This document shows, in pieces, positions 515 through 22,732 of a stretch of 64,000 nucleotides of DNA (its first letter is position 1; each line of letters opens with the position of its first letter). The stretch comes from a virus: IMG/VR virus record IMGVR_UViG_3300030107_003448, positions 1-64,000 of that record. One strand, 5' to 3'. Both the position numbers and the translations under genes were made by a program. Below the pieces are notes generated by a model. That model did not search any database and was not told where the DNA came from. It saw only the letters and a list, made by a program, of their open reading frames with translations.

Positions 515-2260
515 ATGAGCAGGCAGCAATCTCACGAGCCTTATCACACTATGCCGTATGATGATTTGCTGTTTTGGATGGACCAATTACCAGAAGGCAC
601 CAAAGAACATAATGCTGTTTGGAATGAGATAGAAACAAGGGCAATCGAACAAGAAGGCTCTACAGTTCGTGATATTCTTAACCCAAAAAATGAAGCGGGA
701 GAAAAAGTAGACGAAGAAACTGCTTTGTATTATGAACCACAATTTAGAAATTTACCATATCAATATAGTCAAGGTTTTCGGGATGTTGAGGGTGCAGAAA
801 TTCCTATGCAAGATTTATTAGATGACAAAAAACCTCGTTATGAAAATTTCCAAGAAGATGTAGATGTAAGGATGGATGACATTAGAGAGGCTATGCCCGG
901 TCAATACAATGTTTGGTTGAACGATGCACAAAAAGTATATAATCATTTGAAAGAAGTAGCACCACCAGAAGTAGCACAGCAATATTTAAATCGTTATATT
1001 AATTTTGCAGAAACACATTTAGCAGATAGAACCCCCGAATATATGTCACAATGGTTTGACCACTATTTTGATGAAGGCCCAGAGCCAACAGCACCTATGT
1101 TTGAAAATCCTATACCTACAGACGAAACTATTTTTCAAGAATACCCGGGTAGAGATGGGATAAGTATGAATACTTATGATGTTAGTGGGTTTCCCCATAA
1201 TTTCCAAAGTAAATTAGCAAGTGAACCAATGAGCATCGCTATGCAGTTGCTCAAAGGTAAGTTTGATTTAATGCCGATGGAGGCTGCTAATGAATTATTG
1301 GCTTTTAGTGATGACCCAACAACCATACGCTGGCATAACGATAAATATGGATTAGGTTTGAGTGAAGAAGGTTTGTCTCAAGATGAAATGGATGAATTAC
1401 ATAGTCATATAATAGATAGCGATACTGCTTTTGACCCTTTGGTTCCGGGTGGGATAAGTCACGCAGAAAATGTTGAACAATATGAACAAGAATCAGGAAA
1501 ACAAGCAAGACCTATGGGGTTAAATATACAATTAGGAGATGTTCCTATTATTGACCCTACTAAACCCGAAACTTGGAAAGACGGACCCGGCACTACTTGG
1601 GTTGGGGGAAAACCCACAGTATCTCCGCAGATAACTCAGCAACCATTTCCTTACGACTTTGATTACATTCACCAAGGCGAACCAATGGACATCGCTATGC
1701 GGCTGCTCAAACTTGAATCAGATGAATTAGAATTAACACCACCGATGACTCAAGGTGTCGAAGAACAAATGCCTATACAAGAAAATATTCCTATGGTTGA
1801 TGAAAGCATGGGAGGCGGCTATTTAGATTGTGATTGCGCAGAACGAGTAAGAGAGTATGAAATAAATGAATTAAATAATGAAATACAATATGCTAAGTCG
1901 CTAATAGACTATCCAGAAGAAGCCCGTGCACAGTGGATAAGTGATACACTAAACGAAATTGAGTTTTTAGAAAATGCTAGTTGTGAAGATATAGAGAATC
2001 ATTATCATGACTCGTATAACAGAATGTGTGTTTCAAATGAGTTCAGTGAAGAAGACCAAATGAAATACGCAGGTGAACCAATGGACCTTGCATTTCAATT
2101 CCTTAAAGCACCTACTCCCTTTTGGCGAGATGATATAACTCCAGTAAAACCCAAACCGATTACACAAGAAGACAAAACAGCGCCATGTCCATATTGTGTA
2201 GTTTCATATGAATCATGTAAAGAATGTGGAGGAACCGGGAGGATAAATGTTAATCAGTAA
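515..2260 (+). CDS. Acidic multi-module protein with three internal EPM-x-x-A-x-x-x-LK tags and C-terminal CxxC..CxxCGGTG zinc finger; putative internal head (poly)protein
   Basis: ORF 398..2260; first ATG at 515 about 30 nt after a TTTTATT box; tags at 1223-1255, 1679-1711, 2075-2107. Confidence 0.7.
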   Translation: MSRQQSHEPYHTMPYDDLLFWMDQLPEGTKEHNAVWNEIETRAIEQEGSTVRDILNPKNEAGEKVDEETALYYEPQFRNLPYQYSQGFRDVEGAEIPMQDLLDDKKPRYENFQEDVDVRMDDIREAMPGQYNVWLNDAQKVYNHLKEVAPPEVAQQYLNRYINFAETHLADRTPEYMSQWFDHYFDEGPEPTAPMFENPIPTDETIFQEYPGRDGISMNTYDVSGFPHNFQSKLASEPMSIAMQLLKGKFDLMPMEAANELLAFSDDPTTIRWHNDKYGLGLSEEGLSQDEMDELHSHIIDSDTAFDPLVPGGISHAENVEQYEQESGKQARPMGLNIQLGDVPIIDPTKPETWKDGPGTTWVGGKPTVSPQITQQPFPYDFDYIHQGEPMDIAMRLLKLESDELELTPPMTQGVEEQMPIQENIPMVDESMGGGYLDCDCAERVREYEINELNNEIQYAKSLIDYPEEARAQWISDTLNEIEFLENASCEDIENHYHDSYNRMCVSNEFSEEDQMKYAGEPMDLAFQFLKAPTPFWRDDITPVKPKPITQEDKTAPCPYCVVSYESCKECGGTGRINVNQ

Positions 2261-2444
2261 TCCTCCAGAAATAGATGGTCCGAGACTAGCAGATGTTTGT
2301 GAACAAGTAAAAGGATGCCTTAATGGGGATATATTCAAATTTGGTCCAGTCGTTGCAGGTATTTTAATAATGGCCGAAGTTTTATTTTGGGCTTCATTGA
2401 GTGTTTTCATTGTAAAACGATTTAAGAGAAACAGGCAGGAGTGA
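2247..2444 (+). CDS. Small membrane protein
   Basis: 65 aa, hydrophobic PVVAGILIMAEVLFWASLSVFIV followed by basic tail; GGAGG upstream. Confidence 0.65.
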   Translation: MLISNPPEIDGPRLADVCEQVKGCLNGDIFKFGPVVAGILIMAEVLFWASLSVFIVKRFKRNRQE

Positions 2445-2445
2445 C

Positions 2446-2583
2446 ATGTACGATTTATTTTTGTGCTCTCTGTTTTTTTGGTCATTTATATTTGGTTTAT
2501 TCTATAAATCTGAAAAGACAAAAATTTGGGTAAGCATACCACCGAAACAAGCGCCTCCACCAGAAGCATTCAAAAAAGACTAG
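2446..2583 (+). CDS. 45-aa membrane microprotein (MYDLFLCSLFFWSFIFGLFYKSEK...)
   Basis: Read manually (below ORF-track cutoff); GGAGTGA SD directly upstream; N-terminal hydrophobic helix. Confidence 0.55.
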   Translation: MYDLFLCSLFFWSFIFGLFYKSEKTKIWVSIPPKQAPPPEAFKKD

Positions 2584-2638
2584 GTAGTTTACTTTTTACA
2601 CCTTACATATTTAAGCACTAAAGCACATTGGGCCTATC

Positions 2639-3532
2639 ATGGTCCGAGAAGTTACGATACATGAGGTTGGTCCTCGTGATGGTTTGCAAGGTTTGCCTTA
2701 TGTGCTTTCTGTGGACCAAAAAAGGCATTTTATTGAGGCTATAGCACATTCTGGAATTAAAAATATAGAGGTTGCTTCTTTTGTTCACCCGAAGTTAGTG
2801 CCCACTATGGCAAACGCCGAAGAAGTTTACAATGAAGTGGAATATTTACAATATGAACCATATCAAAATATGAATTTGAGCACTCTTGTTATGAATCAAC
2901 GTGGTTTTGATAGAGCATTAGAATCTGGAGTCGAAAATTTTAATATTTGCTTTTCTACCTCTGAAGAATTCAATAAAAGGAACTTTGGTAAAGAACAAAC
3001 GGAAATTTTACAAGAATACGCACAAATGTTACAAAATATACCTAAAAATCAAGTCAAAGTATACATTTCTTGCTTTTTTGGTTGCCCATTCAAAGGATTA
3101 ATGTCCGATAGCACATTATTGACTGCTTTTCAAGAAGCAGCCAAGTTAGGTAACACAATTGTGCTCTGTGACACCACTGGAAGGGCTTTTCCACTACATA
3201 TTAAGTATAATTTGGCTTTAGTTGCTACTTTACCCGAATATAAGCAAGTAAGCATTGCCTTACATCTACATGAAGGCGAAAAAGGCAAAGAATTCTTATT
3301 TGATAATATAAAAGCGGCTTTTGATTTTGGTATTAGGAATTTTGATACTAGTATCGGAGGAATTGGAGGCTGTCCGTTCATGCCTCACTCTGGCGGCAAT
3401 GTCCCAACCGAAGATTTAGTCGAATGGTGCGAAAAACAAAATATTGATTGCGGTATTGAGCGCAAAAATTTAGATTCTCTTATTAATTTAGTAAAAAATG
3501 AGTTTAGAGAAAAGGAGTGTGAAATAAGATGA
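2639..3532 (+). CDS. hmgL: Hydroxymethylglutaryl-CoA lyase (DRE-TIM metallolyase), auxiliary metabolic gene
   Basis: EVGPRDGLQ, IEVASFVHPKLVP, LCDTTG, metal-binding HLH and GGIGGCPF..SGGNVPTED motifs; 297 aa, full length. Confidence 0.9.
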   Translation: MVREVTIHEVGPRDGLQGLPYVLSVDQKRHFIEAIAHSGIKNIEVASFVHPKLVPTMANAEEVYNEVEYLQYEPYQNMNLSTLVMNQRGFDRALESGVENFNICFSTSEEFNKRNFGKEQTEILQEYAQMLQNIPKNQVKVYISCFFGCPFKGLMSDSTLLTAFQEAAKLGNTIVLCDTTGRAFPLHIKYNLALVATLPEYKQVSIALHLHEGEKGKEFLFDNIKAAFDFGIRNFDTSIGGIGGCPFMPHSGGNVPTEDLVEWCEKQNIDCGIERKNLDSLINLVKNEFREKECEIR

Positions 3533-3952: not shown

Positions 3953-3977
3953 AAGTATGGTGTTTGGTATTTGAGTT

Positions 3978-4057: not shown

Positions 4058-4095
4058 CCCTAACTATTATTATCCCTGTTACTTTACGCTATGAC

Positions 4096-4452
4096 ATGGC
4101 GAGTCTAGTAAGTCCGTTAGAAGCAGCATGGGCCGTGCTATTAAAACGAGACCCACATGAAGATGAAGACCCTTATTTAACTATGTATATGCAAGGTCAA
4201 GAAGAAGCAGATGAAGAAATGTATGGTGATTCATTTGACGAAGAAGGAAATCCTATTGAAGGTTTACCTAGTGCTCCCCGAAAAACACCAATGCCAAAAT
4301 TTGACACAGGTGCAGATAGCAAATTCAATTTACAAGAGCATGCTTTAGCAAATTTACTTGAACACGCCGAAGAAGCAGGAATGGGAGCAGGGCAATTCAA
4401 ACAACCAGCCCCAGAAATTCCAGAAGAAGAAGAAACTCCTCCGGAAGAATAA
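4096..4452 (+). CDS. Acidic protein with N-terminal SPLEAAWAVLLK tag
   Basis: 118-aa ORF; TTATTAT box about 25-30 nt upstream, no SD. Confidence 0.75.
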   Translation: MASLVSPLEAAWAVLLKRDPHEDEDPYLTMYMQGQEEADEEMYGDSFDEEGNPIEGLPSAPRKTPMPKFDTGADSKFNLQEHALANLLEHAEEAGMGAGQFKQPAPEIPEEEETPPEE

Positions 4453-4453
4453 G

Positions 4454-4615: not shown

Positions 4616-4617
4616 AC

Positions 4618-4779
4618 TTATTTTCCATATCCTGCGCAATGTTTATCAGACATTTTTCTATTACACATTACTGCTTTATCTCCTTCTATATAATTACCAT
4701 ATGGGCATTGAGGATTTAGGCATTGCACAAAACCAAAAAAATTAGGAGTTTGTTTAGTTATTTTTTCTTTTTTAGTCAT
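4618..4779 (-). CDS. 53-aa Cys-rich (Zn-finger-like) microprotein MTKKEKITKQTPNFFGFVQCLNPQCPYG...
   Basis: Read manually; ATGA overlap with stop of 4776..5060. Confidence 0.55.
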   Translation of the reverse strand: MTKKEKITKQTPNFFGFVQCLNPQCPYGNYIEGDKAVMCNRKMSDKHCAGYGK

Positions 4780-5060
4780 ATTACTAACACCTCTGCTTTG
4801 AGAGTTCCTCTTTCTTTGAAATGTCTAGCCCGATTTGTGTGAGGGTCTTCTGGAACTAAAGTATGTTCTTGTGTATGACTCATATCTGGACCACCTTGTC
4901 CATAAATTCCTCTTTTCCTTCTTTCACGATTTAAATCTTCACGATATTCTACTCTTTTTGGATTAGATTCATATTGCGTATCATATTCTCTTTTATGTCG
5001 TAATGCTTCGGGGCTTGTAGCATGTTTAAGTAAATCCCACGCCGCATTAAGAGGTCTCAT
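4776..5060 (-). CDS. Small basic protein with N-terminal MRPLNAAWDLLK tag; weak resemblance to degenerate HNH-like phage proteins (DMSH...NRAR)
   Basis: 94-aa ORF; TTATA box about 25 nt upstream on minus strand. Confidence 0.7.
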   Translation of the reverse strand: MRPLNAAWDLLKHATSPEALRHKREYDTQYESNPKRVEYREDLNRERRKRGIYGQGGPDMSHTQEHTLVPEDPHTNRARHFKERGTLKAEVLVI

Positions 5061-5146: not shown

Positions 5147-8100
5147 ATGTCTATCGATGTTGCGTGGGATTTTTTAAAACAATCTAACCCAGAATGGGCT
5201 CAACCTACATTAGAAGATTGGGGCCTAGAACCGCCTAAACAAATTACCCCTAAAAAGAGACTTTTTCAACGAAAAAAAACTTCCCGCACCCCTGTCAAAG
5301 AGCGTCCTGTATGGCAGTTTAATCAAGAGCCGCCAATTTTCGATTTCGGACCCCACGCAATTAATCATGTGGATGACGAGGCGTTGAAAAACATACAAGA
5401 ATACGAAAACGATGAAACAGGAAAGACTTTACATGATGTTTGGAGAAGGGCAGAGAGAGGAGTGCCTAAGCAAGTGTGGTTGCAATTAGATAAACTTTTA
5501 GAAGGAAAAAACCAAAACACACGTTTATTAGATTATATATCTCCAAAAGATATGAAATTAACAGAGACTATACGTCACTCTCCATCAGCGAGTTTATCAC
5601 AAATGATACACAAGAGCATGATATTTAGTTTCTTATTAACAGAAAAAGAAATAAATGATATTACAGGAAATAATGTAACATTTTTACATGACCCACAAAA
5701 TAAACTTAATAAAATAGCCTCTACAATTAATAGTAAATTTTTAGCCCTATCTCATAATTTAAATGTCCCTCCTTTAATATTAAGTTTATATTTACATGAT
5801 ATGGCTCGTCCTGCCGAGAAATATATGGATGATGATGAACTACCAAAATATATAACTCATGGATATGAGGTAGGTCCTTTAAATTCTGAATTAAAAACAT
5901 CAGAAATAAACAAATGGTTACAAAATATAGCAAGTGGTATAATAGATGACGATAACTATATCGATTTAACTCATAGTATACGAGAATATATACAAAGCCC
6001 TGCGTTTAATGAAGAAGTATCACGCATTTTTGATGATGATATTCATGGTGATAATTCATTGGGACAAAACTTAATAAGAAATCATCAAGATGCTTTAGAG
6101 CGCCGAAATTCTAAACAAATGAGAGAAGGAACCACAACAAGGCGACCTTCTGCCGACATTTATAATGAAGCCGTAAAAATAACTAAAACAAAACTAAATG
6201 GTCTTGCAGATTTTATAATAAATGCAGATAAATGGTATAGAAACGGGGTAATAAATAATCCTCATATAAATAATCAAAGCGAAGGGGTGAGTTGGAAAGA
6301 TATAGACGGCCCTATTCATTCGGGCGGAAAGCACGGAGAACCTATTATAACAACTCGGAAAAATGTTACATTACCTCATTCTGAAAATATGATGGATTAT
6401 TATACGTCATTAAAATGGTTTAAAAAAGAATTCGGTTGGGATAACTTAAATTCGGATATTAAATGGAATAGTGTAGGAGATGGCTATAAATCAATGGAGC
6501 CCTCCGAAATTTATCACAAATTAGTAAAAGAAACATTTCCTACTAGTAATTATGTATTATTTGCGCCTTACGATAAAATAATCGATTATTTACAAGATTC
6601 CACAGGTTATACGTTTCCAAAATCTGTACAAAAAATGATAAAAGAAGGATGGGGAATAGAAACTGATTGGAACGATTATGCCCCACGGCATGCAAGAAAA
6701 TTGCAAGATATACAGCAGGCTCATGATACACATGATATGGTTCCTATACAACACACTGATATGGTAGGCCCTTTTATTAATATGACTAATACGAATAAAT
6801 GGGTCAAAAGAGAAGGAATAGGGCAACTAATGAATAGTGCCATTCTTAATCGCACGGGTCATCTTTTATCAGATATGCGAACACCGTCTGGACAAGCCTT
6901 TACTGATTCATTAGAGCAATTAATAAATATGTTTGGTGAATCTGATATATATGATAAATTCGGCTATCCATATCATAAAACTAAAGAAGACCGTCTGTCG
7001 GGTATTAAAAATTTCTTAATGCAACCATTTGGGGCAAAAAAGTTACAAAGTATGTTTGGTGTAGTTCCCGAGTGGGTAAAGCATATTTCCCGAGGTGGCG
7101 GTGCTAATACATACTCTACTTTTTTGCCATCAGATTTGGGAGAAAAAGAAAAAGAGAAGTTTATGTCTAAAGTGGAATTTAAAGATTTACCTGAAGATTG
7201 GCAGTACACTCTCAAAAATGTTGACCCGGAAGACTTTAGAGATGACCCCGAACTAGTGTCGATTTTAACAAAGTTAAAGGAAGAAGAAATGTTTGACTGG
7301 GATAATGACTGGGAAAAAATAACACCAGCGTCACGTGTAATACTAACAAATGCTTTACAAGAGGAAGACCTGCACGGTAGGAGAGAAAGATATTTACATT
7401 ATCAATTGCCTTCTCCTTGGGGAGAATTAAGGCCACAAAGCGATGTTTTACCTCCTTTACAAGTAAAAGATGCCCCCGATGTATTGATAGGTGACCGCCC
7501 TACTCCTTATTTTACAGATGACACTAGAATTACACCCGATAGAACACGAAATTTACAAAGGCTACAAAATCTTTTATCAAGTCGCTTAGAAGATTTAGGT
7601 GAGAGGGGTTTACGAGGAAGACAGCAAGCAGTAAAAACGTTACAAGGGGCCCCTACTGATGTATTATTAGAAAATTTGAAATGGCCCGGGGATTATGACC
7701 GCCTATTTACTGGGAAGCCTAGAATAAGAAGTTTAAAAAATTTAAAAGACAAATTAAATCCTAGTGGCGTACCCGCCGAGTATTACGATAGATTACGAAG
7801 TTGGCAAGATGAATGGAAAGGCGAACACAGTACTTCACCATATTCATATTTGACAGGAGAGTTTGATGCCGGGCGCAGTTCTCCAAGACGTGATACGTTC
7901 AGACCTTATCGAGGACAAACGACATTATTTCCTAAGTTCGTTTCAGATTCGGAGCGTGTTCTATCGGGTCCCCCACAACGTCAAGGTTTACCTACATGGC
8001 AAGAAGTAAAAGAAAGAAATAAAAATATACAACAAATGAAGAATATGTATCAGCAAATGGTTGAGCGATATGAGCCTAACTTCAATCCACAAGAAATGCA

Positions 8101-8221
8101 AGAGATGTTTCCGCCCCCATTTGAATTGGACTTAACCAGTTACCAAATGCTCCAAGATAGGGCTCCTTACCAACATGTAAACCCAATCAATTGGTCTATT
8201 CCTAATAACGAGGTGAATTAA
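5147..8221 (+). CDS. Large protein with N-terminal MSIDVAWDFLK tag, PIP-box-like motifs and possible GNAT-like segment
   Basis: ORF 5117..8221; ATG 5147 lies 27 nt after TTTATAT; QPTLEDW, QTTLFPKF, REGIGQLM..LLSDMRTPSG. Confidence 0.75.
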   Translation: MSIDVAWDFLKQSNPEWAQPTLEDWGLEPPKQITPKKRLFQRKKTSRTPVKERPVWQFNQEPPIFDFGPHAINHVDDEALKNIQEYENDETGKTLHDVWRRAERGVPKQVWLQLDKLLEGKNQNTRLLDYISPKDMKLTETIRHSPSASLSQMIHKSMIFSFLLTEKEINDITGNNVTFLHDPQNKLNKIASTINSKFLALSHNLNVPPLILSLYLHDMARPAEKYMDDDELPKYITHGYEVGPLNSELKTSEINKWLQNIASGIIDDDNYIDLTHSIREYIQSPAFNEEVSRIFDDDIHGDNSLGQNLIRNHQDALERRNSKQMREGTTTRRPSADIYNEAVKITKTKLNGLADFIINADKWYRNGVINNPHINNQSEGVSWKDIDGPIHSGGKHGEPIITTRKNVTLPHSENMMDYYTSLKWFKKEFGWDNLNSDIKWNSVGDGYKSMEPSEIYHKLVKETFPTSNYVLFAPYDKIIDYLQDSTGYTFPKSVQKMIKEGWGIETDWNDYAPRHARKLQDIQQAHDTHDMVPIQHTDMVGPFINMTNTNKWVKREGIGQLMNSAILNRTGHLLSDMRTPSGQAFTDSLEQLINMFGESDIYDKFGYPYHKTKEDRLSGIKNFLMQPFGAKKLQSMFGVVPEWVKHISRGGGANTYSTFLPSDLGEKEKEKFMSKVEFKDLPEDWQYTLKNVDPEDFRDDPELVSILTKLKEEEMFDWDNDWEKITPASRVILTNALQEEDLHGRRERYLHYQLPSPWGELRPQSDVLPPLQVKDAPDVLIGDRPTPYFTDDTRITPDRTRNLQRLQNLLSSRLEDLGERGLRGRQQAVKTLQGAPTDVLLENLKWPGDYDRLFTGKPRIRSLKNLKDKLNPSGVPAEYYDRLRSWQDEWKGEHSTSPYSYLTGEFDAGRSSPRRDTFRPYRGQTTLFPKFVSDSERVLSGPPQRQGLPTWQEVKERNKNIQQMKNMYQQMVERYEPNFNPQEMQEMFPPPFELDLTSYQMLQDRAPYQHVNPINWSIPNNEVN

Positions 8222-8223: not shown

Positions 8224-8403
8224 ATGCAACAACCCCCTTTAGAAGAAGAAAATGAAAGAGACGCAGCAGTTGCTCAAGCAAAAACAACTCAAGGCAAAAA
8301 GCCGGGAGATGCAAAATTTGGACAAAACGCTTTATTGATGACTAATAAAGCACACACTTTTGCTTTAAATTTAGCCCTTGAGGAACTTAAGAAACATACA
8401 TAA
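8224..8403 (+). CDS. 59-aa protein ending in tag-like ALNLALEELKK
   Basis: Read manually; GAGGTGA SD at about 8210-8216. Confidence 0.65.
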   Translation: MQQPPLEEENERDAAVAQAKTTQGKKPGDAKFGQNALLMTNKAHTFALNLALEELKKHT

Positions 8404-12855: not shown

Positions 12856-13545
12856 ATGGCGGGGCGTGAGCGTGTGATGAAAAGGTCTTGCGCCTTTTGT
12901 CAATGCGAAGATAGAGATGCTTTAGAAGAAGAATTACAACAAGGCTTAATCTCTACAAAAGAGTTGGATAAAAAGATGGGTTGGAGGGCTAATACAGCAG
13001 ACCGTCATTTTCGTAATCACATGGGAGATTATGTAAAAGCCGCTAACCCTTCTTGTCCTATTTGTTCACACCCAGATAGGGCCGATATTGAGCGTTCATA
13101 TTACGAAGGCATCGTTAGTAGCGAAGAAATTGCTAATGAAACTAATGTTCCCGAATCTACTATTTATCATCATATGAAAATGCACTTCCAACCATTAGTG
13201 CAACGCAGTGCTGCTTTAGAAGTAGCCTTACAAGCAGGCACAGAAATCCAAACATTACGCCAAAACGTAGAAGGATTAAATCATAAATTACAACAATTAT
13301 TAGGAGAAGGTAGTGTGCACGAAGATGGATTTGTTCGTGATGCAGTATCTTTACATAAAGAAGTAAGAGAAAGCGTCAAAGATTTATTGAAGTTTGAAGA
13401 AAAATGGGCAGAACCAGAAGCACAAACTGTCAATCAAACAATTAATGTGTTAAAGGTAGAGTTAGCACAAGAAAGTCCAGAAGTGTGGAGGAGAGTTAAA
13501 AAGCGTTTGTTAGAACAAGACGCCGAAGTTGAGGTGGTAGAATGA
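12856..13545 (+). CDS. Probable terminase small subunit / DNA-binding protein with duplicated CxxC-HTH unit
   Basis: CAFCQCEDRDALE...HFRNH and CPICSHPDRADIE...EEIANETNVPESTIYHHMKMH, then coiled coil; first gene of the run leading to TerL. Confidence 0.5.
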   Translation: MAGRERVMKRSCAFCQCEDRDALEEELQQGLISTKELDKKMGWRANTADRHFRNHMGDYVKAANPSCPICSHPDRADIERSYYEGIVSSEEIANETNVPESTIYHHMKMHFQPLVQRSAALEVALQAGTEIQTLRQNVEGLNHKLQQLLGEGSVHEDGFVRDAVSLHKEVRESVKDLLKFEEKWAEPEAQTVNQTINVLKVELAQESPEVWRRVKKRLLEQDAEVEVVE

Positions 13546-13967
13546 AAGCCATCCATGTTCCAATGAATGTTTTGTTGGCATACGGCACACCTTATACTCC
13601 ATTTTTACATGGTAAGGATAAATTAAAACCAGAAGAAATTGAAATATTTTTTGATGGTGTGCATGAGTGTGTAGAACGTTGGTTGTATTATCTAAATCAA
13701 CAATTTATTGCTGAACCAATTCATTTACCATACCATGCCCCTGTTGAAAATCTAAGAGAATCTTTGTTAAGTTTAATGGAAGTTGATGATGAATCTGTAT
13801 TCCAAGTTAGAAAACAAGCACATCATGCAATTATTGAGTTTGAACATCTTTGCACTGATATGGCTCGTTCATTTACTCATCCTCCTCGTATTAAAGATTT
13901 TTATCATAATTTAGCAAGTAGGTCTAGGTCTACTTTAGAAAGTTTGACGGATGGTGATGTTAAATGA
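13542..13967 (+). CDS. Hypothetical protein
   Basis: 141-aa ORF, GAGGTGG SD, ATGA overlaps at both ends. Confidence 0.75.
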   Translation: MKAIHVPMNVLLAYGTPYTPFLHGKDKLKPEEIEIFFDGVHECVERWLYYLNQQFIAEPIHLPYHAPVENLRESLLSLMEVDDESVFQVRKQAHHAIIEFEHLCTDMARSFTHPPRIKDFYHNLASRSRSTLESLTDGDVK

Positions 13968-15847
13968 CTGCTCCAATGGGAAGGGGTTCTGATACCCGTT
14001 TATTCAACCCACGTTCTGAATCTACACGTATGTTTGGGTATGAAGAAGATGATTTAGGACATGCTCATGGTGAAGGAGACCCAGAAATTACAGCACAGAA
14101 ACGTGAAAAGAAGCGTGACGAAAAAGAAGATAAGAAAAAACGTCAACATTTACAGCATCTTAAAATTCAACATAAAGATGTTTTAGATATGTTACCAGAA
14201 GATGGTAAAGAAGCATCTCAAGAAGGAGACTTAGAATTAGGCAATAACGATGAAGCAGAAAATGAATTATCTGCATTAACTGGTGCTAGTGGTTCTCGTG
14301 GTGCTATGCTCGACCAAGCAGTTGGGGCAAAAACAGGAACTGGTTCTGCAATGGGTGGCACACCTCCTTTGCTTGGGCCGATGGGTGTTTACCGAAGTGA
14401 CGATGCTATGGAATTGGCTTGGGATGAATTAACAATCCGTAAAGATGAAGAAAATGTCGAAAAATGGTTACAAGCCATTCCCGCTCTTGTACAAGGAGCA
14501 GCAAGGGTTGCTGCAAAAGTAGCCCCTAAAATAAAGGAAGCGGGTAAAGCGTTTCTTGGATTTAAAGGAGCACAATCAGTATTAGGTGGTGGTGGACAAG
14601 CAGCAGCAACAGGGACACAAGCAGCAGCAACAGGGACACAAGCAGCAGCAACAGGGGCAACAGGAGCAGGGACAAGAGCAGTTGGAGTAGCAGATGACGT
14701 AGCGCCTCCTAAATCAGCAGGTCAAGAAGTACAAGAAAACGCTCAACAACAGCAGCAGCAACAACAGCAAGCAGGTCAACCACAAGCAGATTTAACTGCA
14801 CAAGCGACACAATTTAGAGACCAAACCCATGCAGATAAAGCAGCAGCCGAACAAGCAAGAGACGCAAGAGCATCAGGCCAAATAGCCGCTAGTGAGCCAA
14901 TGGATTATGCTTGGTCTCTTTTAACTAAATCAAAAAAAGATAAAGACGAAGGACCAATGGCTTCTGGTGATATAGGAACTGCTGGTACATCTATCGGTAG
15001 ACGTAAAGAACAAGCCGCTAAATGGGCTCACCCTCGTTTCAAAGGGCCTCCCGGAGGAAGAAGACCATGGACTGCAACTAGCCGTAGGGCTAAAGCAAGA
15101 AGCAGAACATTATCTCCTCGACATCGTGTTCATGACATTAAAGGTGGATTGATGAGTGCGCCTTTGGCTGTTCACATGTCTCACCTTGGTGTGCAAACTA
15201 AACAACCTATGCGGCAATTCCCAGAAAAATATCGTCAATATTATGGTCAACAATTACGTAGAAGACTGCAAGGTAATGTGCCTTTACCATATTCGCCCCA
15301 CGGTATTATGGGAGAAAGAACGCAAACTCCCGGACCAACAGGTGGAGGTATTCTTCCGGGTCAATTGCCGGGGCAAGCAGCAGCAGCCCGTATACCTTCA
15401 ATGCGCAGATTAGCAAGACCACGAGTTCCAAGACTACGTAGACCTACAGGTTTTGCCCCAATGACTCCGCCTAGTATACCTCAAGCGCCTTCTTTACCTC
15501 AACCTGCACAAGTAGGTTTGCCTTCTTCTTCAATTCAAATGTCTGATAAAGTAGGAGTAGGTAGTAGTTTACAAAAGAATTTAGATATTTTAAGGCCCGG
15601 CACATTTTCTTATTTACATAGTCGAGAAATCGCAAAACTTCTTAGAGAATTAAAAGAGGCTATGAAACACCAAAAGATGCAAAAATCAGGCGTTAAAGAT
15701 GTATCTGGTGCAGGTGAAACTAAACCTAAACATCCTGCTAATAGTCCAAGTAAAACAACTAGATTAGAAGGAGCAACTGAAACAGACCCAGATGATGACC
15801 CTCGATATTGGGGCATGGAACCATCTGCTATGATAGGAGCACATTGA
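13964..15847 (+). CDS. Low-complexity protein with two internal tags (DAMELAWDEL..RK, SEPMDYAWSLLTK); putative internal virion/ejection protein
   Basis: 627-aa ORF; A/G/Q-rich then R/P-rich segments. Confidence 0.7.
   Translation: MTAPMGRGSDTRLFNPRSESTRMFGYEEDDLGHAHGEGDPEITAQKREKKRDEKEDKKKRQHLQHLKIQHKDVLDMLPEDGKEASQEGDLELGNNDEAENELSALTGASGSRGAMLDQAVGAKTGTGSAMGGTPPLLGPMGVYRSDDAMELAWDELTIRKDEENVEKWLQAIPALVQGAARVAAKVAPKIKEAGKAFLGFKGAQSVLGGGGQAAATGTQAAATGTQAAATGATGAGTRAVGVADDVAPPKSAGQEVQENAQQQQQQQQQAGQPQADLTAQATQFRDQTHADKAAAEQARDARASGQIAASEPMDYAWSLLTKSKKDKDEGPMASGDIGTAGTSIGRRKEQAAKWAHPRFKGPPGGRRPWTATSRRAKARSRTLSPRHRVHDIKGGLMSAPLAVHMSHLGVQTKQPMRQFPEKYRQYYGQQLRRRLQGNVPLPYSPHGIMGERTQTPGPTGGGILPGQLPGQAAAARIPSMRRLARPRVPRLRRPTGFAPMTPPSIPQAPSLPQPAQVGLPSSSIQMSDKVGVGSSLQKNLDILRPGTFSYLHSREIAKLLRELKEAMKHQKMQKSGVKDVSGAGETKPKHPANSPSKTTRLEGATETDPDDDPRYWGMEPSAMIGAH
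14596..14656 (+). repeat. 21-bp tandem repeat (ACAAGCAGCAGCAACAGGGAC) x2.9 encoding QAAATGT
   Basis: Copies start at 14596, 14617 and 14638. Confidence 0.9.
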
Positions 15848-15848
15848 T

Positions 15849-17945
15849 ATGCCACAAATAATCGTACTCAATCCTGCTGAAATGCTACTTAAGTCATTTT
15901 TCAGAGAAGTAGTTGAGCCTGCTATTATCATGAAAGGAGACGGTGTCCTCTATATGGGCCCGGGCGGAAATAAACTGATGGGTTTTCCTCCAGAACATGC
16001 GTTCAATATGGACCCTAATGTGCCAGACCACCCTATGTGGTCACATGACCCTCATACAGGAGATTTGCTTGAAGGAGGAATGCATCCTATAGATGGCGCT
16101 TTATATCATTTACAAGAATTTTTGAGCAAACATGGGATTAAAGGCGTACAGGCAGAACAAATAATTCAACAAGCAATTGATGATTACAATAGAAGCCATA
16201 CCTCTGATAACCATCATTTACCACCTTTTAATTCTCCAGAATGGAGGAAATTAGTAATAGGCCCTCATCCTACTAATGTAGCCAGTAGTGAAATTGCTTC
16301 TCGTGGAAAAGATGGTAAATTATTTACTCATTATGGTAATAGAGGAGGGGCTATTGGTTTATTCCCTGAATCTGGGGCTATACCTTTCTATAAAGAATTA
16401 GAAAAAATTCTAACCGATATGGGTTTAGGACACGCTAGAGATGAATTAGAGTTTGTAAAATATCCAAATATTAGTGCCCAACATTTAGCCTCTAATGTAT
16501 ATCGTACTAAAAAAGGAGAATTATCTGCACACGGTATTGTTCCTTCTCATGTTTTAGAACAACATGGACCAGAAGGAGCATTATATGATGCAGCACATGG
16601 TGCTCGACATACATGGGAAACTGTGCATCATTTACCTCCTGCTATGTTTGCTCCGGGTTATGCTTTACGTTCTAATAGTGCAACCTTACGAGAAATGAAT
16701 GCACAGATAACTCAAGCATTAGCAACTGTGCCCCCTCAAAAATTACCAAATATACCAATTCAATTACACGATGGCACTAGAATGGGATTTAGAGAGGCTA
16801 TGTCAAATCCTAAAGCCAGAGAAATGCTGATTAATGATATGGCTACTTCTGCTGCATCTCAATATATGTTTGCAGGAGCAGGTAGTCCTGCTACACGCAC
16901 TAAAACAAGAGAAATTTTAGGACCTTTGATGGGAGAAGAAAATATTGAAGGTTTTGATATACACAGTTCTCATTCATACACAGGCACTCGTAGAAAAGGG
17001 AGAAGCCCACATTCTTTTGCTGCCAAAGTAGCGGCGGCGGCGGCAGCACATGGTCCTTGGGAAAAAGACTCATCACGTTCTGCTTTAGCAGATAATCCAC
17101 ATGGATTAAAACCAAATGCCGATTTTAATGAAATTGAAAGGCGTAGAATTGCTATTGAAGGACTTGCTGATTTATTATCTGCTGCTAATGGGCATGATAG
17201 ATGGACTCCAGATTGGGATAATTTACCAACAGAAGCATTGGCTTCTCGTGATATTGGTAACATGGGTCAAATATTACATGAACAAGTCCCAGACCATTTT
17301 TCAAATCGATTTTACACAGATTTGAATATTGCACCAATGGCTATGGCGGGTATACCTACAGGTATGGGACAAGGTCCTTCTGTTGTAGAACCTAAACCTG
17401 CACCTCCTCCAGCCCCTGCTCCACCTCCTGCACCTGTTCCACAGGCTGCAATTCCTAGTTCACCTGCGGCGACAATTATGAGACCACAAACCCCCGCTTT
17501 AGTTGCTGCTCGTCAACATATAGGTGCGCAACCTAGTATGGGAGAAAGACAAAGAGTAGCAGAAGATTATGGATTAAAAGTGCCAGAATTTGAAAGAAGA
17601 AGATACCTAGAAACAATGGGAGACCCTGCTCAGACATTTTTATCTCAATGGGGAATGAAATCTGAAACTCAACCAGTTGAAATGATTGACCGTATTGAAA
17701 AAGCAATGGAAGAATTACAACTTAAAGATGCTATTAGGGATGATTCAGTTATCAAGTATCTTCCAAATAAAAAGAATCTTAATTTTAATATAGAGGCTGA
17801 TGTATTATTTATGGCTCAACATGTAGGTTTGACTAAACATGATATTCGTTCTATTATAGTTTCAAAAGGCGATTGGCATCGTGTCGCTGATATATATCAA
17901 GTATCTCCTTCTATTGTAGGAGCAGTTAAGGTGGTGTTTTCATGA
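15849..17945 (+). CDS. Hypothetical His/Pro-rich protein, putative internal virion protein
   Basis: 698-aa ORF; N-terminal EMLLKS; PAPPP linker; QTFLSQW. Confidence 0.7.
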   Translation: MPQIIVLNPAEMLLKSFFREVVEPAIIMKGDGVLYMGPGGNKLMGFPPEHAFNMDPNVPDHPMWSHDPHTGDLLEGGMHPIDGALYHLQEFLSKHGIKGVQAEQIIQQAIDDYNRSHTSDNHHLPPFNSPEWRKLVIGPHPTNVASSEIASRGKDGKLFTHYGNRGGAIGLFPESGAIPFYKELEKILTDMGLGHARDELEFVKYPNISAQHLASNVYRTKKGELSAHGIVPSHVLEQHGPEGALYDAAHGARHTWETVHHLPPAMFAPGYALRSNSATLREMNAQITQALATVPPQKLPNIPIQLHDGTRMGFREAMSNPKAREMLINDMATSAASQYMFAGAGSPATRTKTREILGPLMGEENIEGFDIHSSHSYTGTRRKGRSPHSFAAKVAAAAAAHGPWEKDSSRSALADNPHGLKPNADFNEIERRRIAIEGLADLLSAANGHDRWTPDWDNLPTEALASRDIGNMGQILHEQVPDHFSNRFYTDLNIAPMAMAGIPTGMGQGPSVVEPKPAPPPAPAPPPAPVPQAAIPSSPAATIMRPQTPALVAARQHIGAQPSMGERQRVAEDYGLKVPEFERRRYLETMGDPAQTFLSQWGMKSETQPVEMIDRIEKAMEELQLKDAIRDDSVIKYLPNKKNLNFNIEADVLFMAQHVGLTKHDIRSIIVSKGDWHRVADIYQVSPSIVGAVKVVFS

Positions 17946-19351
17946 GTAATATTTTGGTGAGAAAAGGACCAAACATAGCAGAATCAGTAGAACCTGCTGT
18001 TACTGGTGGCTCATCTACCGCTATAATGCCCGGCGGTCAAATATTTTTTAGTGGACCAGCAGGTTATCAAATACCTATTGGAGGAGGTAGAAGTAAAGGA
18101 AATATTACTCCTTCGCAGCGAGATTTGACTCGTCTTAGTAGAGATAGACCTGCTATTGGAAATATTAAAGTAATGAAACCAGAACAAAGAGCGGTTTTGA
18201 ATCGACCAACAGCACCAGTAGATTCAGTGGGCGTTATACGTGATATGGGACGTAGAAATGAATTAGCCAGAGGAGCAAAGCGAGATAAATTAGCGAGACT
18301 ATTAGGTCGAGGGCTTGCTGGATATGCTGCTTTGGCCTCATCAGATAGTGATGATTTAATGGATGCAGGTGGCCGTATGTATGGTACTTATGCAGCAACC
18401 CGTGCTGCAACTGGAGAGGGTGCTCTTGAAGGTAGTTATGACCAAGACGAAGAAGGTAATATTACTAGAACTCCAAGTGCTTTTGAAAGAGGATTTGGAG
18501 ATTTAAGAGAAGGTGCCCAAGAAACTGGGGGCGCTATTGGTAGAGGACTAGTTGGAGTCAAAGATTGGGCTAAAGAAAAATGGAGTCAATTAAAAAATAA
18601 ATGGCCTACTAGAGAATCTGTAGCAGTAGAGCCGTCTATGTATGAAAGAATTGACGCAATGCCTCACCCTGCTCAAACATTGAGTGGGGGATATTTTGAC
18701 CCACGAATGCGAGCATTAGTGAGTGATGATTCACAATTAGCAGTAGACGCAGTGGCAAGAAGGCAAGCAAAACAACAAAGACAAAATCAAATAAATACTC
18801 AAAAGATAGGAGAAGTTCTTGTTAATCCAACAATGACTGGACAAGCCCCTCCACCACCAGTAGGTATGGCAACTGTAGGTATGAATATGCCTCCACCAAC
18901 TCAAGCCACAGGTTTCAACCCACAAGCAGTAGGCCAAGGAGAGGTGGGAACAGAACCTGTTATGAATACAACACCTACTGACCCCAAGCAAGGGACTCTT
19001 GACCCATGGTTGAATAATCCAAATCAACAACCAAATGCTGTTGGTGGAGGTCCAGAAGACCCATTTAAGGACTTAAAAGGAGAACCAATGGATATGGCTT
19101 GGTCATTATTGAAAGAAAATCAACCATGTAAAGATTGTGGGCAACCTGCCCCTACTAATTTTCGTATGCCGATTTGGGAATTAAATGGTTTATGTTTTGA
19201 TTGTATTGACAGAAGAATGAAAGAGATGGGGGCAACACAAGAAGCGAATGAAGAAACAGGGCAACCTGCAACAACAATGCGTGACTTACTTAATGCTAAA
19301 ATAAGTGAAGCAGGAATAGCAGGAGACCGACAAAGAGAGGATTTAGCATGA
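17942..19351 (+). CDS. Low-complexity protein with internal GEPMDMAWSLLK tag followed by CxxC..CxxC zinc finger
   Basis: 469-aa ORF, ATGA overlaps; tag at 19082-19114. Confidence 0.7.
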   Translation: MSNILVRKGPNIAESVEPAVTGGSSTAIMPGGQIFFSGPAGYQIPIGGGRSKGNITPSQRDLTRLSRDRPAIGNIKVMKPEQRAVLNRPTAPVDSVGVIRDMGRRNELARGAKRDKLARLLGRGLAGYAALASSDSDDLMDAGGRMYGTYAATRAATGEGALEGSYDQDEEGNITRTPSAFERGFGDLREGAQETGGAIGRGLVGVKDWAKEKWSQLKNKWPTRESVAVEPSMYERIDAMPHPAQTLSGGYFDPRMRALVSDDSQLAVDAVARRQAKQQRQNQINTQKIGEVLVNPTMTGQAPPPPVGMATVGMNMPPPTQATGFNPQAVGQGEVGTEPVMNTTPTDPKQGTLDPWLNNPNQQPNAVGGGPEDPFKDLKGEPMDMAWSLLKENQPCKDCGQPAPTNFRMPIWELNGLCFDCIDRRMKEMGATQEANEETGQPATTMRDLLNAKISEAGIAGDRQREDLA

Positions 19352-20811
19352 GTGACGTTAATCAACTCATTCGTGAAATGGACTGGGAAATGTCCTCTAA
19401 GTCTTTTGAATATTTTTTCACCGATGTATTAGGATATGATTACAATGCTCATCATGAGCAGTGGGTAGACCGTTTGAATAACAATAGATACTATGTTGTT
19501 AAAGCGGCTCGTGACCATGGTAAGTCTACATTGTTTATGTCATATGCACTATGGATTGCCGCATTTAATCCTAATACACATATCATGATATTTTCACACT
19601 CATTAGAACAGACACTTGAGCACATGCGTATGATTCGTAGTCATATTGAAGGTAATGATTTGCTTGTTCATTTGAAACCAACAGGACAGCCTTGGGCTAA
19701 ATCGTATTTTGAATTTTCAAATGGTAGTCGTCTTATGGCTAAATCGGTAGGTGGTGCTACTCGTGGTTTCCACCCCGATGTTGTAGTTTGTGATGATATT
19801 CTCTGGGGTTCGACTGCTGGAGAGTTAGCCAGAACTGCTGATTGGTTCTATTCCGTTCTATTACCAGTTCTGCACCACACTGGTCGTTTGATGATTGTTG
19901 GAACGCCGTTTTCGTATAATGACTTGTATACGGAATTAGAATCTAAAGATGCGTTTATTGTAGAAACATTTCCCGCTATGGATAGTGAAGGAGTAGCGTT
20001 ATGGCCTAATCGTTGGGATGAAGAATCTTTAATGCAAAGGCGTATGTCTATGCCTGCTATACAATTCGCTCGTGAATATCTCTGTGAGCCTATTCATGAT
20101 GTTGCGAGTATGTTCCCAATGGATATTTTAGAAACTGCTAGAGACCCCGATTTAGTTTTAATGAGTCGTGCCGAATCTGAATATAATGAAGCAGGTGAAG
20201 TAGCAGGCGTATTTGGTAATCATTTCATAGGTTGGGACCCTGCGATTGCGTCTGATAAAAACGCAGATTATACAGCAATGATAACTATGCGTACTATAGA
20301 TAATGTAAAACAAATTGTAAATCATGTTCATCAAAAAGGATTAAATTCTGAAGCACAAAAAAGGCATATTATTTTATTGAATAATAGATTTCAACCAGAC
20401 CTTATTGAACTAGAAGGTAATAATTTCCAAAGAATGTTTGAAACTGAATTAAGAGGAATGGATATACCGATAAGAACTTTCATGACTACACGTGCACGTA
20501 AAGAGAGTTTATTTATGAGTTTACTTATGGCTTTTGAACAAGGAGATATACGCACCCCTTATGGTAATGAAGAAAGCAAAAAGTTTACACACGAGTTAGA
20601 AACCGAGTTGAATAGATTTGGTATGACTAAGCAAGGTAAATTAGAAAGTGTAGGTGTGCACGATGACCTTGCTATGGCTTTAGCATTGGCTAATTGGGGT
20701 TCTAAAGAATTCAAAGGTAGTGTAGTTATGTTAGATGATTTCTTGCCCGGCTTTGGTGATTGGGTTGAAGGTAATTTAAGACCTGCGGGTCATGATTGGT
20801 TTGTGGAGTGA
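19348..20811 (+). CDS. terL: Terminase large subunit
   Basis: Walker A AARDHGKST, Walker B VVVCDD, IVGTP motif, RNase-H-like GWDPA and HDDLAMALALA. Confidence 0.95.
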   Translation: MSDVNQLIREMDWEMSSKSFEYFFTDVLGYDYNAHHEQWVDRLNNNRYYVVKAARDHGKSTLFMSYALWIAAFNPNTHIMIFSHSLEQTLEHMRMIRSHIEGNDLLVHLKPTGQPWAKSYFEFSNGSRLMAKSVGGATRGFHPDVVVCDDILWGSTAGELARTADWFYSVLLPVLHHTGRLMIVGTPFSYNDLYTELESKDAFIVETFPAMDSEGVALWPNRWDEESLMQRRMSMPAIQFAREYLCEPIHDVASMFPMDILETARDPDLVLMSRAESEYNEAGEVAGVFGNHFIGWDPAIASDKNADYTAMITMRTIDNVKQIVNHVHQKGLNSEAQKRHIILLNNRFQPDLIELEGNNFQRMFETELRGMDIPIRTFMTTRARKESLFMSLLMAFEQGDIRTPYGNEESKKFTHELETELNRFGMTKQGKLESVGVHDDLAMALALANWGSKEFKGSVVMLDDFLPGFGDWVEGNLRPAGHDWFVE

Positions 20812-20816
20812 TATAT

Positions 20817-22193
20817 ATGTGGGGTTCATCATTAGTCGGAGATGAGTATGATTTACCTATAGATATTAGTAATATTGATAGCCCTCTTACGAGGGCAATA
20901 ATTAAAGAGTTAGGTAAACACCCACACTTTGACAAAAAGCCCGGAGGGTTGGTAAGTATTGTAATTAGCCTACAAGGAAAGAAACCAAAAGAAGATACTA
21001 TCGAAGAAAAAAAGGATGAGAATATGACTAATAAATCTGCTTTACAATTTTCATCTGATGGCACTGGTTGGTTTGAAGACCAATTAGGTAAAAGTGCAGA
21101 TGCTATAGTCAAAGACTTGCGTAGAGCAAGAAGACACTATAAAGATTTCAAAGATGATATTGATACTATAATTCGTAGTGTCCAAGATTTAAAAAGTTTA
21201 GAAGTAGAAACTACTTTAAAAATGTATAATTGGATGGACGGCAGAGAATCCACTATACGAGATTTAGGATTATCTGATAGAGATTTAAAGTCTTTAAGAA
21301 AATTCGGAGGCGCTCGTGCTCATTCTTTAATTAAAGCATGTCAACAATGGGATAATGCAACTAGTGTAATTAAAACTTTAGAATCTGTAGAAGATGCTTG
21401 GGATAATAGTCAAAAACAAGATTGGGCTAATGCTATGCAATTAAGAAAAGATGCACGTAAGTCGTGGAGACACGCTTTACATCAAACAGACTCTCTTACT
21501 AAACATGAACAAGTATGGTTAGAAATCGCTCGTGAAGATTTATCACATCGAGGACCTATGAAAGCAGCAGATATAGTGAATAATATTTTAACGAAAGGAG
21601 TAGACCAAAATCAATTTAAGAGTTTAACACCTAAAGGTTTGGCTAGTCTTTTGAATATTTATGGAGAAGAAGTAGATATTATGAAAGGAGGACGTAGAGG
21701 ACAATATGTATTAATTAAAAATGACGCACTAGTTATTAAATCTGAACAAATTTGGCCATATGCTGCTGGCTTTTTAGATGCTGATGGTTATATTTCTATT
21801 ACTAAAAGAGGCGAACCTCGTGCTGGATTTATTGCTACTGGTTCACGTGGTAGAATTCATTGTGAACAATTACATAAAACATTAGGATGTGGTGTTTTAC
21901 AATTAGACCAAAAAATATACAAAGATGGACAAAGAAGCCAACATAGATTACAATTTTATTCAAAAGATGATATGAGAAAACTACTAAATGGAGTATTACC
22001 TCATTTACATATGAAAGATATTCAAGCCAAAGCAGTGTTAGAATTTTTAGATGCAGACGCAGAAAGAAAGCAACAATTACAGAAAGTAGTGCAATACGAA
22101 AATTGGAAAGACACACAAAAGGCTCAAGAACTGCTTACTGAGTGGGGTGTACAGGCCGAAGTCATCGGTAAGTGGACAGAGGGATTAATATGA
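20817..22193 (+). CDS. Protein with C-terminal LAGLIDADG domain and about 300-aa helical N-terminal extension
   Basis: YAAGFLDADGYISI, LHKTLGCGVL, LLNGVLPHLHMKDIQA; GGAGTGA SD before ATG 20817. Confidence 0.8.
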   Translation: MWGSSLVGDEYDLPIDISNIDSPLTRAIIKELGKHPHFDKKPGGLVSIVISLQGKKPKEDTIEEKKDENMTNKSALQFSSDGTGWFEDQLGKSADAIVKDLRRARRHYKDFKDDIDTIIRSVQDLKSLEVETTLKMYNWMDGRESTIRDLGLSDRDLKSLRKFGGARAHSLIKACQQWDNATSVIKTLESVEDAWDNSQKQDWANAMQLRKDARKSWRHALHQTDSLTKHEQVWLEIAREDLSHRGPMKAADIVNNILTKGVDQNQFKSLTPKGLASLLNIYGEEVDIMKGGRRGQYVLIKNDALVIKSEQIWPYAAGFLDADGYISITKRGEPRAGFIATGSRGRIHCEQLHKTLGCGVLQLDQKIYKDGQRSQHRLQFYSKDDMRKLLNGVLPHLHMKDIQAKAVLEFLDADAERKQQLQKVVQYENWKDTQKAQELLTEWGVQAEVIGKWTEGLI

Positions 22194-22732
22194 GACCAAT
22201 AGATATAGCATGGGACTTGTTGAAAGCAGCAGGTAGAGGCTCTCCAATAGGAGGAGGAGCGACTAAAGATTCGTTTAGTCATGGGCCGGGGCCAAGAGGA
22301 TTTCCCGGAAGCCCACGAGCATCAGAAAGAGTAGACAGACCGAGAGAAGGACCACCTATGGCTACCACTGGTCCTGTTAAACCTACTGGAACAGCAGATA
22401 CTGGTTTTATGAATATAAACGAAGGACAAGATGTAAGTGGTAGAGCAGCAGAAGAAGAAGCAATGTGGAGTGCTCTTAAAGATAGAACTCAAGCCGCAGC
22501 ACAAAGACACTCGTCATCTGCTATTAATAATGAACAAATGATAAATGATGCTCTTAGCGCTGATGATTTTACATATGATTTACATCACGATGATGAATTT
22601 GAAGGTGCAATGCCAGACGAAGAAAAAGAATATTTAACTCATCAAATGGAAAATTATCCAGCAGATTACGGAATTCAACCAAGAATAGGATGGCGCCAAA
22701 CCCCTGTACATCCCCCTGTACATCGTGGATAA
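22190..22732 (+). CDS. Low-complexity protein with N-terminal MRPIDIAWDLLK tag
   Basis: ATG 22190 overlaps upstream TGA (ATGA). Confidence 0.75.
   Translation: MRPIDIAWDLLKAAGRGSPIGGGATKDSFSHGPGPRGFPGSPRASERVDRPREGPPMATTGPVKPTGTADTGFMNINEGQDVSGRAAEEEAMWSALKDRTQAAAQRHSSSAINNEQMINDALSADDFTYDLHHDDEFEGAMPDEEKEYLTHQMENYPADYGIQPRIGWRQTPVHPPVHRG

Follow-up and report, generated by a model that had tools for sequence, protein, structure and literature searches.

What function could a peptide of about a dozen residues serve in proteins that resemble one another in nothing else? The first 64 kb of the 100,678-bp virus record IMGVR_UViG_3300030107_003448 (hereafter the window) raises this question. Here, a short helical motif ending in lysine, which we call the tag, opens or joins the modules of many proteins encoded around the terminase and portal genes. 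The initial annotation had proposed that it is a portable address label, docking diverse cargo in the prohead and being clipped off at maturation. The idea of a portable label is borne out by our analysis, since one and the same peptide is found on unrelated modules, is under selection at the protein level, and appears confined to one virus lineage. Packaging of the tagged proteins into the virion is our tentative explanation, and it is weighed below against four others.

The tag is a genuine feature of this genome. All 11 coordinate pairs of the initial annotation yielded the expected peptides on translation, and a 13-column profile (A2), derived from 140 instances of the tag and run over the whole genome at E ≤ 10, returned 10 sites, all located between 1.2 and 22.2 kb. 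These sites are 10 of the 11 listed copies and nothing else, the copy at 14402-14443 being left unscored. A sequence previously considered a weaker, C-terminal copy (ALNLALEELKK, gene 8224-8403) did not match the profile and was dropped as a tag. The pattern AW.[LFVIM]LK is present five times in the proteome, versus a mean of 0.04 (maximum of 2) in 500 shuffles, and the looser A[WFM].hL.?K (h, hydrophobic) is present 12 times, versus 0.37 in proteome shuffles. The motif is thus far from equally frequent in shuffled proteins, and chance can be ruled out as its origin. No A2 site was found in the tail block (24 to 62 kb) or in the replication arm of this genome.

The individual copies, on the plus strand unless stated otherwise, illustrate how diverse their carriers are. 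Three internal tags divide the ORF (open reading frame) at 515-2260: E-P-M-S-I-A-M-Q-L-L-K at 1223-1255 (A2 E value, 4.9e-4), E-P-M-D-I-A-M-R-L-L-K at 1679-1711 (3.6e-5), and EPMDLAFQFLK at 2075-2107 (2.1e-5), the last being followed by a CxxCxGxG zinc-finger module. A near-N-terminal tag at 4111-4146, of an extra-Leu variant (A-W-A-V-L-L-K) that A2 scores weakly (E = 0.03), belongs to an acidic 118-residue protein (4096-4452). The tag M-R-P-L-N-A-A-W-D-L-L-K, at 5025-5060 on the minus strand (1.9e-4), opens a basic 94-residue protein (4776-5060), while M-S-I-D-V-A-W-D-F-L-K, at 5147-5179 (4.5e-3), opens an orphan protein of 1024 residues (5147-8221), and M-S-P-F-D-M-A-W-S-V-L-K, at 9999-10034 (6.0e-6), opens an acidic one of 134 residues (9999-10403). 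The protein at 13964-15847 carries two internal copies. The first, A-W-D-E-L-T-I-R-K (14402-14443), is the one that A2 left unscored; since its orthologues have A-W-S-E-L-L-K at this position, we read it as a decayed copy of that tag variant. The second (14894-14929; 2.0e-4) lies ahead of a very basic, Pro-rich module of approximately 310 residues that is kept in all relatives. The best-scoring copy, EPMDMAWSLLK (19082-19114; 3.1e-6), precedes a zinc-ribbon module in the protein at 17942-19351, whose gene is immediately upstream of that of the large terminase subunit; in orthologues of this protein, the tag is nearly C-terminal. Finally, M-R-P-I-D-I-A-W-D-L-L-K (22190-22225; 6.1e-6) opens a 180-residue protein encoded immediately upstream of the portal gene. 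In addition, an untagged protein of 698 residues starts with a 15-residue leader (15849-15893, plus strand) ending in P-A-E-M-L-L-K|S (the bar marks the bond after Lys), which corresponds to the C-terminal half of the tag without A-W and may be a degenerate or minimal tag leader.

Across this genome and its relatives, we collected 269 tags in 227 proteins. The placement at the N terminus or between modules reported in the initial annotation holds for most of them (125 N-terminal and 128 internal), and 16 C-terminal tags, in which 0 to 11 residues follow the Lys, form an additional class absent from that earlier listing. The N-terminal form, M-x-[PA]-[FMIL]-[DEN]-x-A-W-x-h-L-K, begins at Met1, and among the 116 N-terminal cases with an upstream Met, the leader is 12 residues long in 54 and 13 residues long in 19. 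The internal form, [GS]-E-P-M-[DE]-[IL]-A-[WMF]-[RQ]-L-L-K, is often preceded by [FW]-Q-D-x-x-x. The DNA encoding its first residues is most commonly GGC/AGC-GAA-CCA, and the codons for G/S-E-P vary synonymously, which argues for selection on the peptide.

The tag is a two-to-three-turn amphipathic helix, with Pro/Asp as the N-cap, a terminal Lys, and a hydrophobic face that includes the Ala-Trp pair. A spacing of h-x-x-x-W-x-x-L puts the hydrophobic residue after the Pro, the Trp, and the last Leu on one face of this helix. In the AlphaFold2 model of the 94-residue protein at 4776-5060, the tag is a separate helix (residues 2 to 13), and the chain breaks at residues 14 to 16 (predicted local distance difference test [pLDDT] score of 80.6). 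The residues flanking the tags are disorder promoting in 64 to 67% of cases. With at most 12 conserved residues, a nonglobular context, unrelated carriers, and independence of position, the tag has the properties of a helical short linear motif.

The proteins that carry the tag differ widely and exchange parts. The 201 related loci encode 219 distinct tagged proteins in 158 sequence clusters, and they include arrays of five to seven neighboring small genes, each opening with a tag. When tagged proteins were cut at their tags and the pieces clustered, 12 of the 41 multimember clusters contained modules found both alone, behind an N-terminal tag, and behind internal tags of longer proteins. The modules of ORF 515-2260, for example, recur in relatives in other orders and with other partners. 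A profile of the tag joined to a DUF5872-like module matched 986 representative clusters among 1.84 billion proteins, and the best 150 of these are mostly multimodule proteins with one to seven tags at a median spacing of 162 residues. Judging from these sequences, the tag and the module downstream of it behave as a portable unit. The most extreme "beads-on-a-string" case that we saw is an ORF of 1,205 residues, open at its 5′ end, in a 108.6-kb relative (L169:1-3615, plus strand), with six tags 100 to 340 residues apart.

Two kinds of modules, the DUF5872-like one and one with the pattern K-L-C-P...Y-P-S-A-Y-A-N-G-W, have untagged homologues in T7-like cyanophages and pelagiphages, such as Syn5 gp50 and the product of a small P-SCSP2 gene located between the scaffold and capsid genes. 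Since these phage homologues begin directly with the module, the tag appears to have been added specifically in the lineage studied here. In the window, the DUF5872-like module (phrog_6437) is represented by the 94-residue protein at 4776-5060 (minus strand), a homologue of cyanophage Syn5 gp50 and of the products of small genes of other T7-like cyanophages. Its model consists of three helices, a beta hairpin, and a helix. An HNH-like beta-beta-alpha core was suspected from its invariant S-H-T...N-R-A-R-H residues; a Foldseek search against the PDB returned nothing at E ≤ 0.001, and we do not claim such a fold. The Pfam and PHROGs searches with eight tagged window proteins gave nothing beyond this phrog_6437 assignment. 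The 1024-residue protein (5147-8221) had no PDB sequence match, no ESM Atlas match, and no homologue except itself, and the largely low-complexity, 627-residue protein at 13964-15847 had no PDB match.

The carriers include several very basic modules as well as long, acidic, or disordered proteins. A match to any Pfam family was obtained for only about 19 of the 148 tagged representatives: DUF5872 (six), DUF6321 (four), SLOG/YAcAr (two), HD_4 (two), and single cases of DUF7831, the DnaJ zinc finger, GNAT, DprA, and the capping-enzyme C-domain. The label of injected effectors used in the initial annotation therefore rests on few annotations, and many carriers are disordered or strongly basic. 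What the carriers have in common besides the tag is solubility and genomic position. A membrane-like segment is present in 2 of the 227 tagged proteins, versus 300 of 2,018 untagged ORFs, and 48 of the 50 tags in five complete genomes share their coding strand with the terminase and capsid genes. Tagged genes flank those of the terminase and portal in this genome and are inserted between conserved head-tail genes in relatives. As the initial annotation had anticipated for tail and replication proteins, no tail, capsid-shell, or replication protein is tagged in this genome or in the relatives examined.

The tag appears to belong to a single lineage of viruses. The gene set, the halovirus-like capsid protein, and the IMG/VR relatives of the source genome agree with what has been published on magroviruses (PMC5434244), and we therefore assign it to this group of tailed viruses, which infect Poseidoniales (Marine Group II archaea). 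The capsid protein shares 32 to 33% identity with those of haloviruses HVTV-1 and HCTV-1, an archaeal-type replication gene set occupies the opposite strand over the remainder of the genome, and the terminase is common, at 69 to 86% identity, to more than 260 IMG/VR contigs of about 90 to 110 kb. Four complete relatives (107 to 110 kb) have 12 or 13 A2 matches each. We also ran a degenerate DNA pattern for E-P-M-D-x-A-W-x-L-L-K (approximately 41 bits) on the IMG/VR viral contigs and on 596 Gb of prokaryote genomes, one genome per species. It retrieved 48 viral sites in 41 stretches. All 48 are in frame within long ORFs, and BLAST matched 38 of the 41 stretches to proteins of this genome. In the prokaryote collection, it matched at only two places. 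One, NZQM01000026.1, is a tag-bearing contig of a metagenome-assembled genome (MAG) labeled "Parvibaculum sp." and is syntenic with positions 9 to 18 kb of the window; it is evidently a magrovirus contig misbinned into a bacterial MAG. At the other, no long ORF contains a tag and nothing matches proteins of this genome, and we take it as chance. Hence, the strict internal form was not found as a genuine host tag in this collection, hosts do not appear to use it, and confinement of the tag to this virus lineage is supported by the sequence data at hand. The magrovirus literature that we searched does not mention the motif, and we found no publication describing the tag.

The Lys that ends the tag is strictly kept. 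Among [PA]-h-[DEN]-x-A-W contexts in which no Lys was imposed, 216 of 222 have a Lys at +4 or +5 from the Trp, and two have an Arg at +4. Pro never directly follows the tag Lys (0 of 223), while it makes up 9 to 17% of the residues at positions +2 to +6. Similar Lys sites are found in the protease-scaffold and the capsid protein. A Peptidase_S78 prohead serine protease fused to a scaffold-like C-terminal half is encoded at 31632-33014 (plus strand; protease domain at residues 29 to 176, with Pfam matches to Peptidase_S78 [E = 6.9e-12] and Peptidase_S78_2). Its gene directly adjoins that of the HK97-fold capsid protein (32999-34153, plus strand; Pfam SU10_MCP), an HK97-like arrangement. The capsid leader ends in S-E-L-L-K (residues 37 to 41; 33107-33121, plus strand), the very residues that close the A-W-S-E-L-L-K tag variant, with K|[AS]-D as the candidate maturation site, and [DE]-[LI]-L-K-[AS]-D occupies this position in 80 of 80 relatives. 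The junction aligns with M-S-K|A-D and V-S-K|A-D of the haloviruses, the sequence downstream being conserved and the leaders differing in length (34 versus approximately 100 residues). In HK97, the Peptidase_S78 protease gp4 cuts the delta domain off the capsid protein gp5 after Lys103, and the magrovirus junction pattern recalls this arrangement. A preprint on the cryo-electron microscopy structure of HFTV1 contains nothing on capsid cleavage.

An alignment of the protease-scaffold with 57 relatives (47 to 72% identity) revealed four invariant Lys residues. K24 (31701-31703) closes the variable N-terminal leader of the protease and is always h-h-K|[GSA], K176 (32157-32159) marks the protease/scaffold border, K403 (32838-32840) lies in [LI]-x-K|[AS], and K426 (32907-32909) lies in [LIF]-x-K|[SA] within a gap-rich, hypervariable scaffold linker. 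The initial annotation had listed several hydrophobic-hydrophobic-Lys sites in the two head proteins as likenesses of the tag. Those at capsid K41 and at the four protease-scaffold positions are invariant, but MEK-G (K213) and MEK-S (K248) are conserved in only 47% and 35% of relatives, respectively. Even DUF5872 modules without the A-W half of the tag have V-V-K or L-V-K in front of them. Taken together, these sites would fit one protease rule, with a hydrophobic residue at P3 and/or P2 and a Lys at P1. The scaffold tail (32955-33011, plus strand) contains a further nearly invariant stretch in the 57 relatives, M-[SD]-W-[DSN]-[DE]-V-H-x-L-A. The tail is unlike the tag of this lineage and is not matched by A2, so that mimicry of the tail by the tag, which we considered, is not evident here.

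A model combining docking, cleavage after Lys, and packaging, analogous to the capsid-targeting sequence (CTS) of phage T4, accommodates these observations best, and we favor it while granting it slightly less than even confidence. Late in infection, the helix would bring soluble cargo modules to a docking partner inside the prohead under assembly, most likely the scaffold half of the protease-scaffold or the capsid leader. The Peptidase_S78 prohead protease would then cut after the tag Lys, following the same hydrophobic-x-Lys rule as on the capsid leader, its own leader, and the scaffold linkers. This cut would strip off the N-terminal tags and split the multitag, beads-on-a-string proteins into modules, which would be kept in the head alongside the DNA and then enter the next host. 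The existence of C-terminal copies argues that docking, not cutting, is the primary function, and the retention of highly conserved tags at every joint of the multimodule proteins argues that the joints are also processed. A broader and quite possible, if still tentative, view is that of a plug-in delivery system, in which any soluble module gaining the 12-residue helix, single or chained, would be docked, released at the Lys, and carried into the next Poseidoniales cell.

Several points weigh against this combined model. Docking, cleavage, presence in the virion, and delivery to the next cell are all inferences. Cutting at a C-terminal tag would gain nothing, so docking may be the sole function, and a conserved helix of ten residues far exceeds the needs of a protease. 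The hydrophobic-x-Lys rule carries little information; F-R-I-L-K, which ends the protease domain, is also the normal last strand of the S78 fold. Moreover, helix formers or caps (A, E, M, Q, G, N, or S) predominate at the position after the tag Lys, and helix geometry could therefore explain the missing Pro. The AlphaFold2 model of the capsid protein reached a pLDDT of 32, the alignment being too shallow, and leaves the leader boundary without structural support. The failure of A2 to match the scaffold tail means that mimicry of this tail is not evident in the lineage. As for the cargo, many carriers are long, disordered, or strongly acidic and are not compact effectors, and the tagged gene at 4776-5060 lies on the opposite strand.

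The alternative that survives best, although we regard it as rather unlikely, is that the tag is a helical short linear motif docking its carriers to another common hub, with no role for the capsid and no cleavage. Such a hub could be the viral group II chaperonin (66746-68293, minus strand), the products of a small GTPase operon, the portal or terminase, or a host protein. The location of the tags in linkers and at protein ends, their disorder-prone flanks, the occurrence of all three placements, and the separate helix in the AlphaFold2 model all agree with docking of this kind. Furthermore, ten conserved residues with an invariant Trp resemble a groove-binding helix, h-x-x-x-W-x-x-L being the spacing in the p53/MDM2 peptide. 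However, no host genome in the prokaryote collection scanned contains the strict form, so that hijacking of a host hub would rely on a motif of which the host itself makes no use, and proteins of replication and of the early arm are never tagged. Docking to a hub also leaves unexplained why the last residue is strictly Lys and not Arg, why Pro never comes next, and why the tag variant is identical to S-E-L-L-K of the capsid leader. The absence of tags from replication proteins, together with differing patterns, likewise led us to drop two specific readings of the motif, as a PCNA-binding peptide (PIP box) and as an ESCRT MIM-like peptide.

The strict Lys and the missing Pro can be accommodated by processing only, in which the tags are joints of cytoplasmic polyproteins cut by the prohead protease or another Lys-specific protease, without capsid loading. 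Proteins with up to six or seven tags at a median spacing of 162 residues, and the occurrence of the same modules alone and in fusions, are what such joints would produce. Yet cleavage would serve no obvious purpose at the 125 N-terminal and 16 C-terminal tags among the 269. Prohead proteases, such as those of HK97 and T4, are normally active solely inside proheads, and no second protease gene was seen among the window proteins scanned. We thus consider this explanation improbable. The extensive shuffling of modules between genomes could also point to the DNA level, with the tag as a recombination linker that promotes cassette exchange at module borders, like the junction motifs of polymorphic toxins. 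This is very unlikely, since the peptide is kept through synonymous codon changes, the copies could be found only with a degenerate DNA pattern, and N-terminal copies differ in sequence from internal ones while keeping the helix pattern; shuffling may be a by-product of the tag rather than its purpose. Least credible of all are hidden gene starts, in which the in-frame G-E-P-M would act as a Shine-Dalgarno sequence plus ATG so that modules are also translated alone: they would account for the preference of internal tags for Met at the hydrophobic position (102 of 131, versus 32 of 123 N-terminal tags), which otherwise stays without explanation, but we reject them on codon evidence, since synonymous codons preserve E and P as residues, only 17% of the internal tag Met codons have GGTGA upstream of them, and 2% have GAGG, versus 30% at true starts.

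Among known systems, the internal proteins of T4 come closest to the packaging that we propose. The CTS of IPI-III and Alt and its removal by gp21 were reportedly described by Mullaney and Black in 1996. T4 internal proteins are unrelated save for this short N-terminal peptide of 10 to 20 residues, which attaches to the prohead core and is cleaved off by the prohead protease (PMC3012670; PMC7411985). In both cases, a short N-terminal peptide (12 residues in magroviruses) is the sole shared feature of unrelated, fast-changing proteins whose genes lie among or near the head genes. The T4 peptide ends at the cleavage motif of its own protease, and the magrovirus tag ends in h-L-K, as the putative cleavage sites at invariant Lys residues of the head proteins do. 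The two peptides have no sequence relation. The magrovirus protease is of the S78 family, with a predicted cut after Lys, while T4 has the gp21 type, which cuts after Glu. The magrovirus tag also occurs internally, up to six or seven times per protein, and at the C terminus, and the host of the virus is an archaeon. We therefore rejected descent from the T4 system and regard the tag as its analogue.

HK97 shares the protease family with magroviruses, in which the capsid leader closes with an invariant Lys and a Ser or Ala comes next; the magrovirus cut site is a prediction from conservation. To our knowledge, HK97 does not load extra cargo through a shared tag. In the giant phages SPN3US and phiKZ, the N-terminal propeptides of head and ejection proteins are cut at A-x-E by the prohead protease (PMC7411985, PMC5694885). 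There, too, one protease and one motif serve many head-internal proteins, and the propeptides were proposed to target the prohead, but they are 100 to 130 residues long and share no short peptide. Encapsulin cargo-loading peptides are short, conserved, and borne by diverse cargo that docks inside an HK97-fold shell; unlike the magrovirus tag, they are usually C-terminal and uncleaved, serve a cellular compartment without portal or protease, and show no sequence likeness to it. Variable effector or antidefense modules are packaged in heads as MuF-type polymorphic toxins of temperate phages and as Dar proteins of phage P1 (PMC9024508, PMC12810830), in these cases via a folded head-protein domain or dedicated partner proteins and not via a 12-residue tag. 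Our literature search found no paper tying capsid targeting to archaeal tailed viruses and no magrovirus virion proteome. We know of no magrovirus that has been cultured.

The genes surrounding the tagged ones place the tag within the morphogenesis block, which is marked by the large terminase subunit (19348-20811, plus strand; Pfam Terminase_6C and Terminase_6N). An HNH endonuclease (20796-22193) and the portal protein (22744-24516, plus strand; assigned by Pfam) follow. The D-D-A-F-L-I-L-V-K stretch of the latter is a conserved portal motif and a false positive under loose tag patterns. Between the portal and the protease lies the gene for a 1,930-residue protein (25810-31602, plus strand), whose sole Pfam hint is subthreshold (Snurportin m3G-cap-binding/nucleotidyltransferase-like, residues 1445 to 1548); its gene position suggests a head-internal protein. 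The structural block closes with a single 17.1-kb ORF of 5,700 residues (45463-62565, plus strand) that has a concanavalin A-like/Laminin_G_3 domain near the N terminus and no further Pfam match, and it is probably a giant fiber or adhesin. Upstream of the terminase block, a 229-residue protein (12856-13545, plus strand) contains Cys clusters and matches HTH_20; it is a candidate for the small terminase subunit or a late regulator. An intact, untagged gene of the HMGL-like (HMG-CoA lyase) family (2639-3532, plus strand; E = 9e-26) sits amid the tagged genes.

Magroviruses rank with the most abundant viruses in surface ocean waters, and the bulk of their genes lack a known function. At least a tenth of their proteins can now be placed in one functional class by a single short tag. 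If the packaging model is true, the tag would be the first capsid-cargo address system in an archaeal virus, and the T4 solution would have been invented a second time, independently, with an HK97-type protease at its base. The tag would then also serve as a 12-residue handle by which proteins could be packaged into HK97-fold shells. At least one in ten magrovirus proteins would then be cargo borne by the virion, including small, basic, DNA-binding-like modules borrowed from cyanophages and pelagiphages, and the hypervariable gene arrays of these viruses would represent exchangeable cargo, possibly counterdefense proteins.

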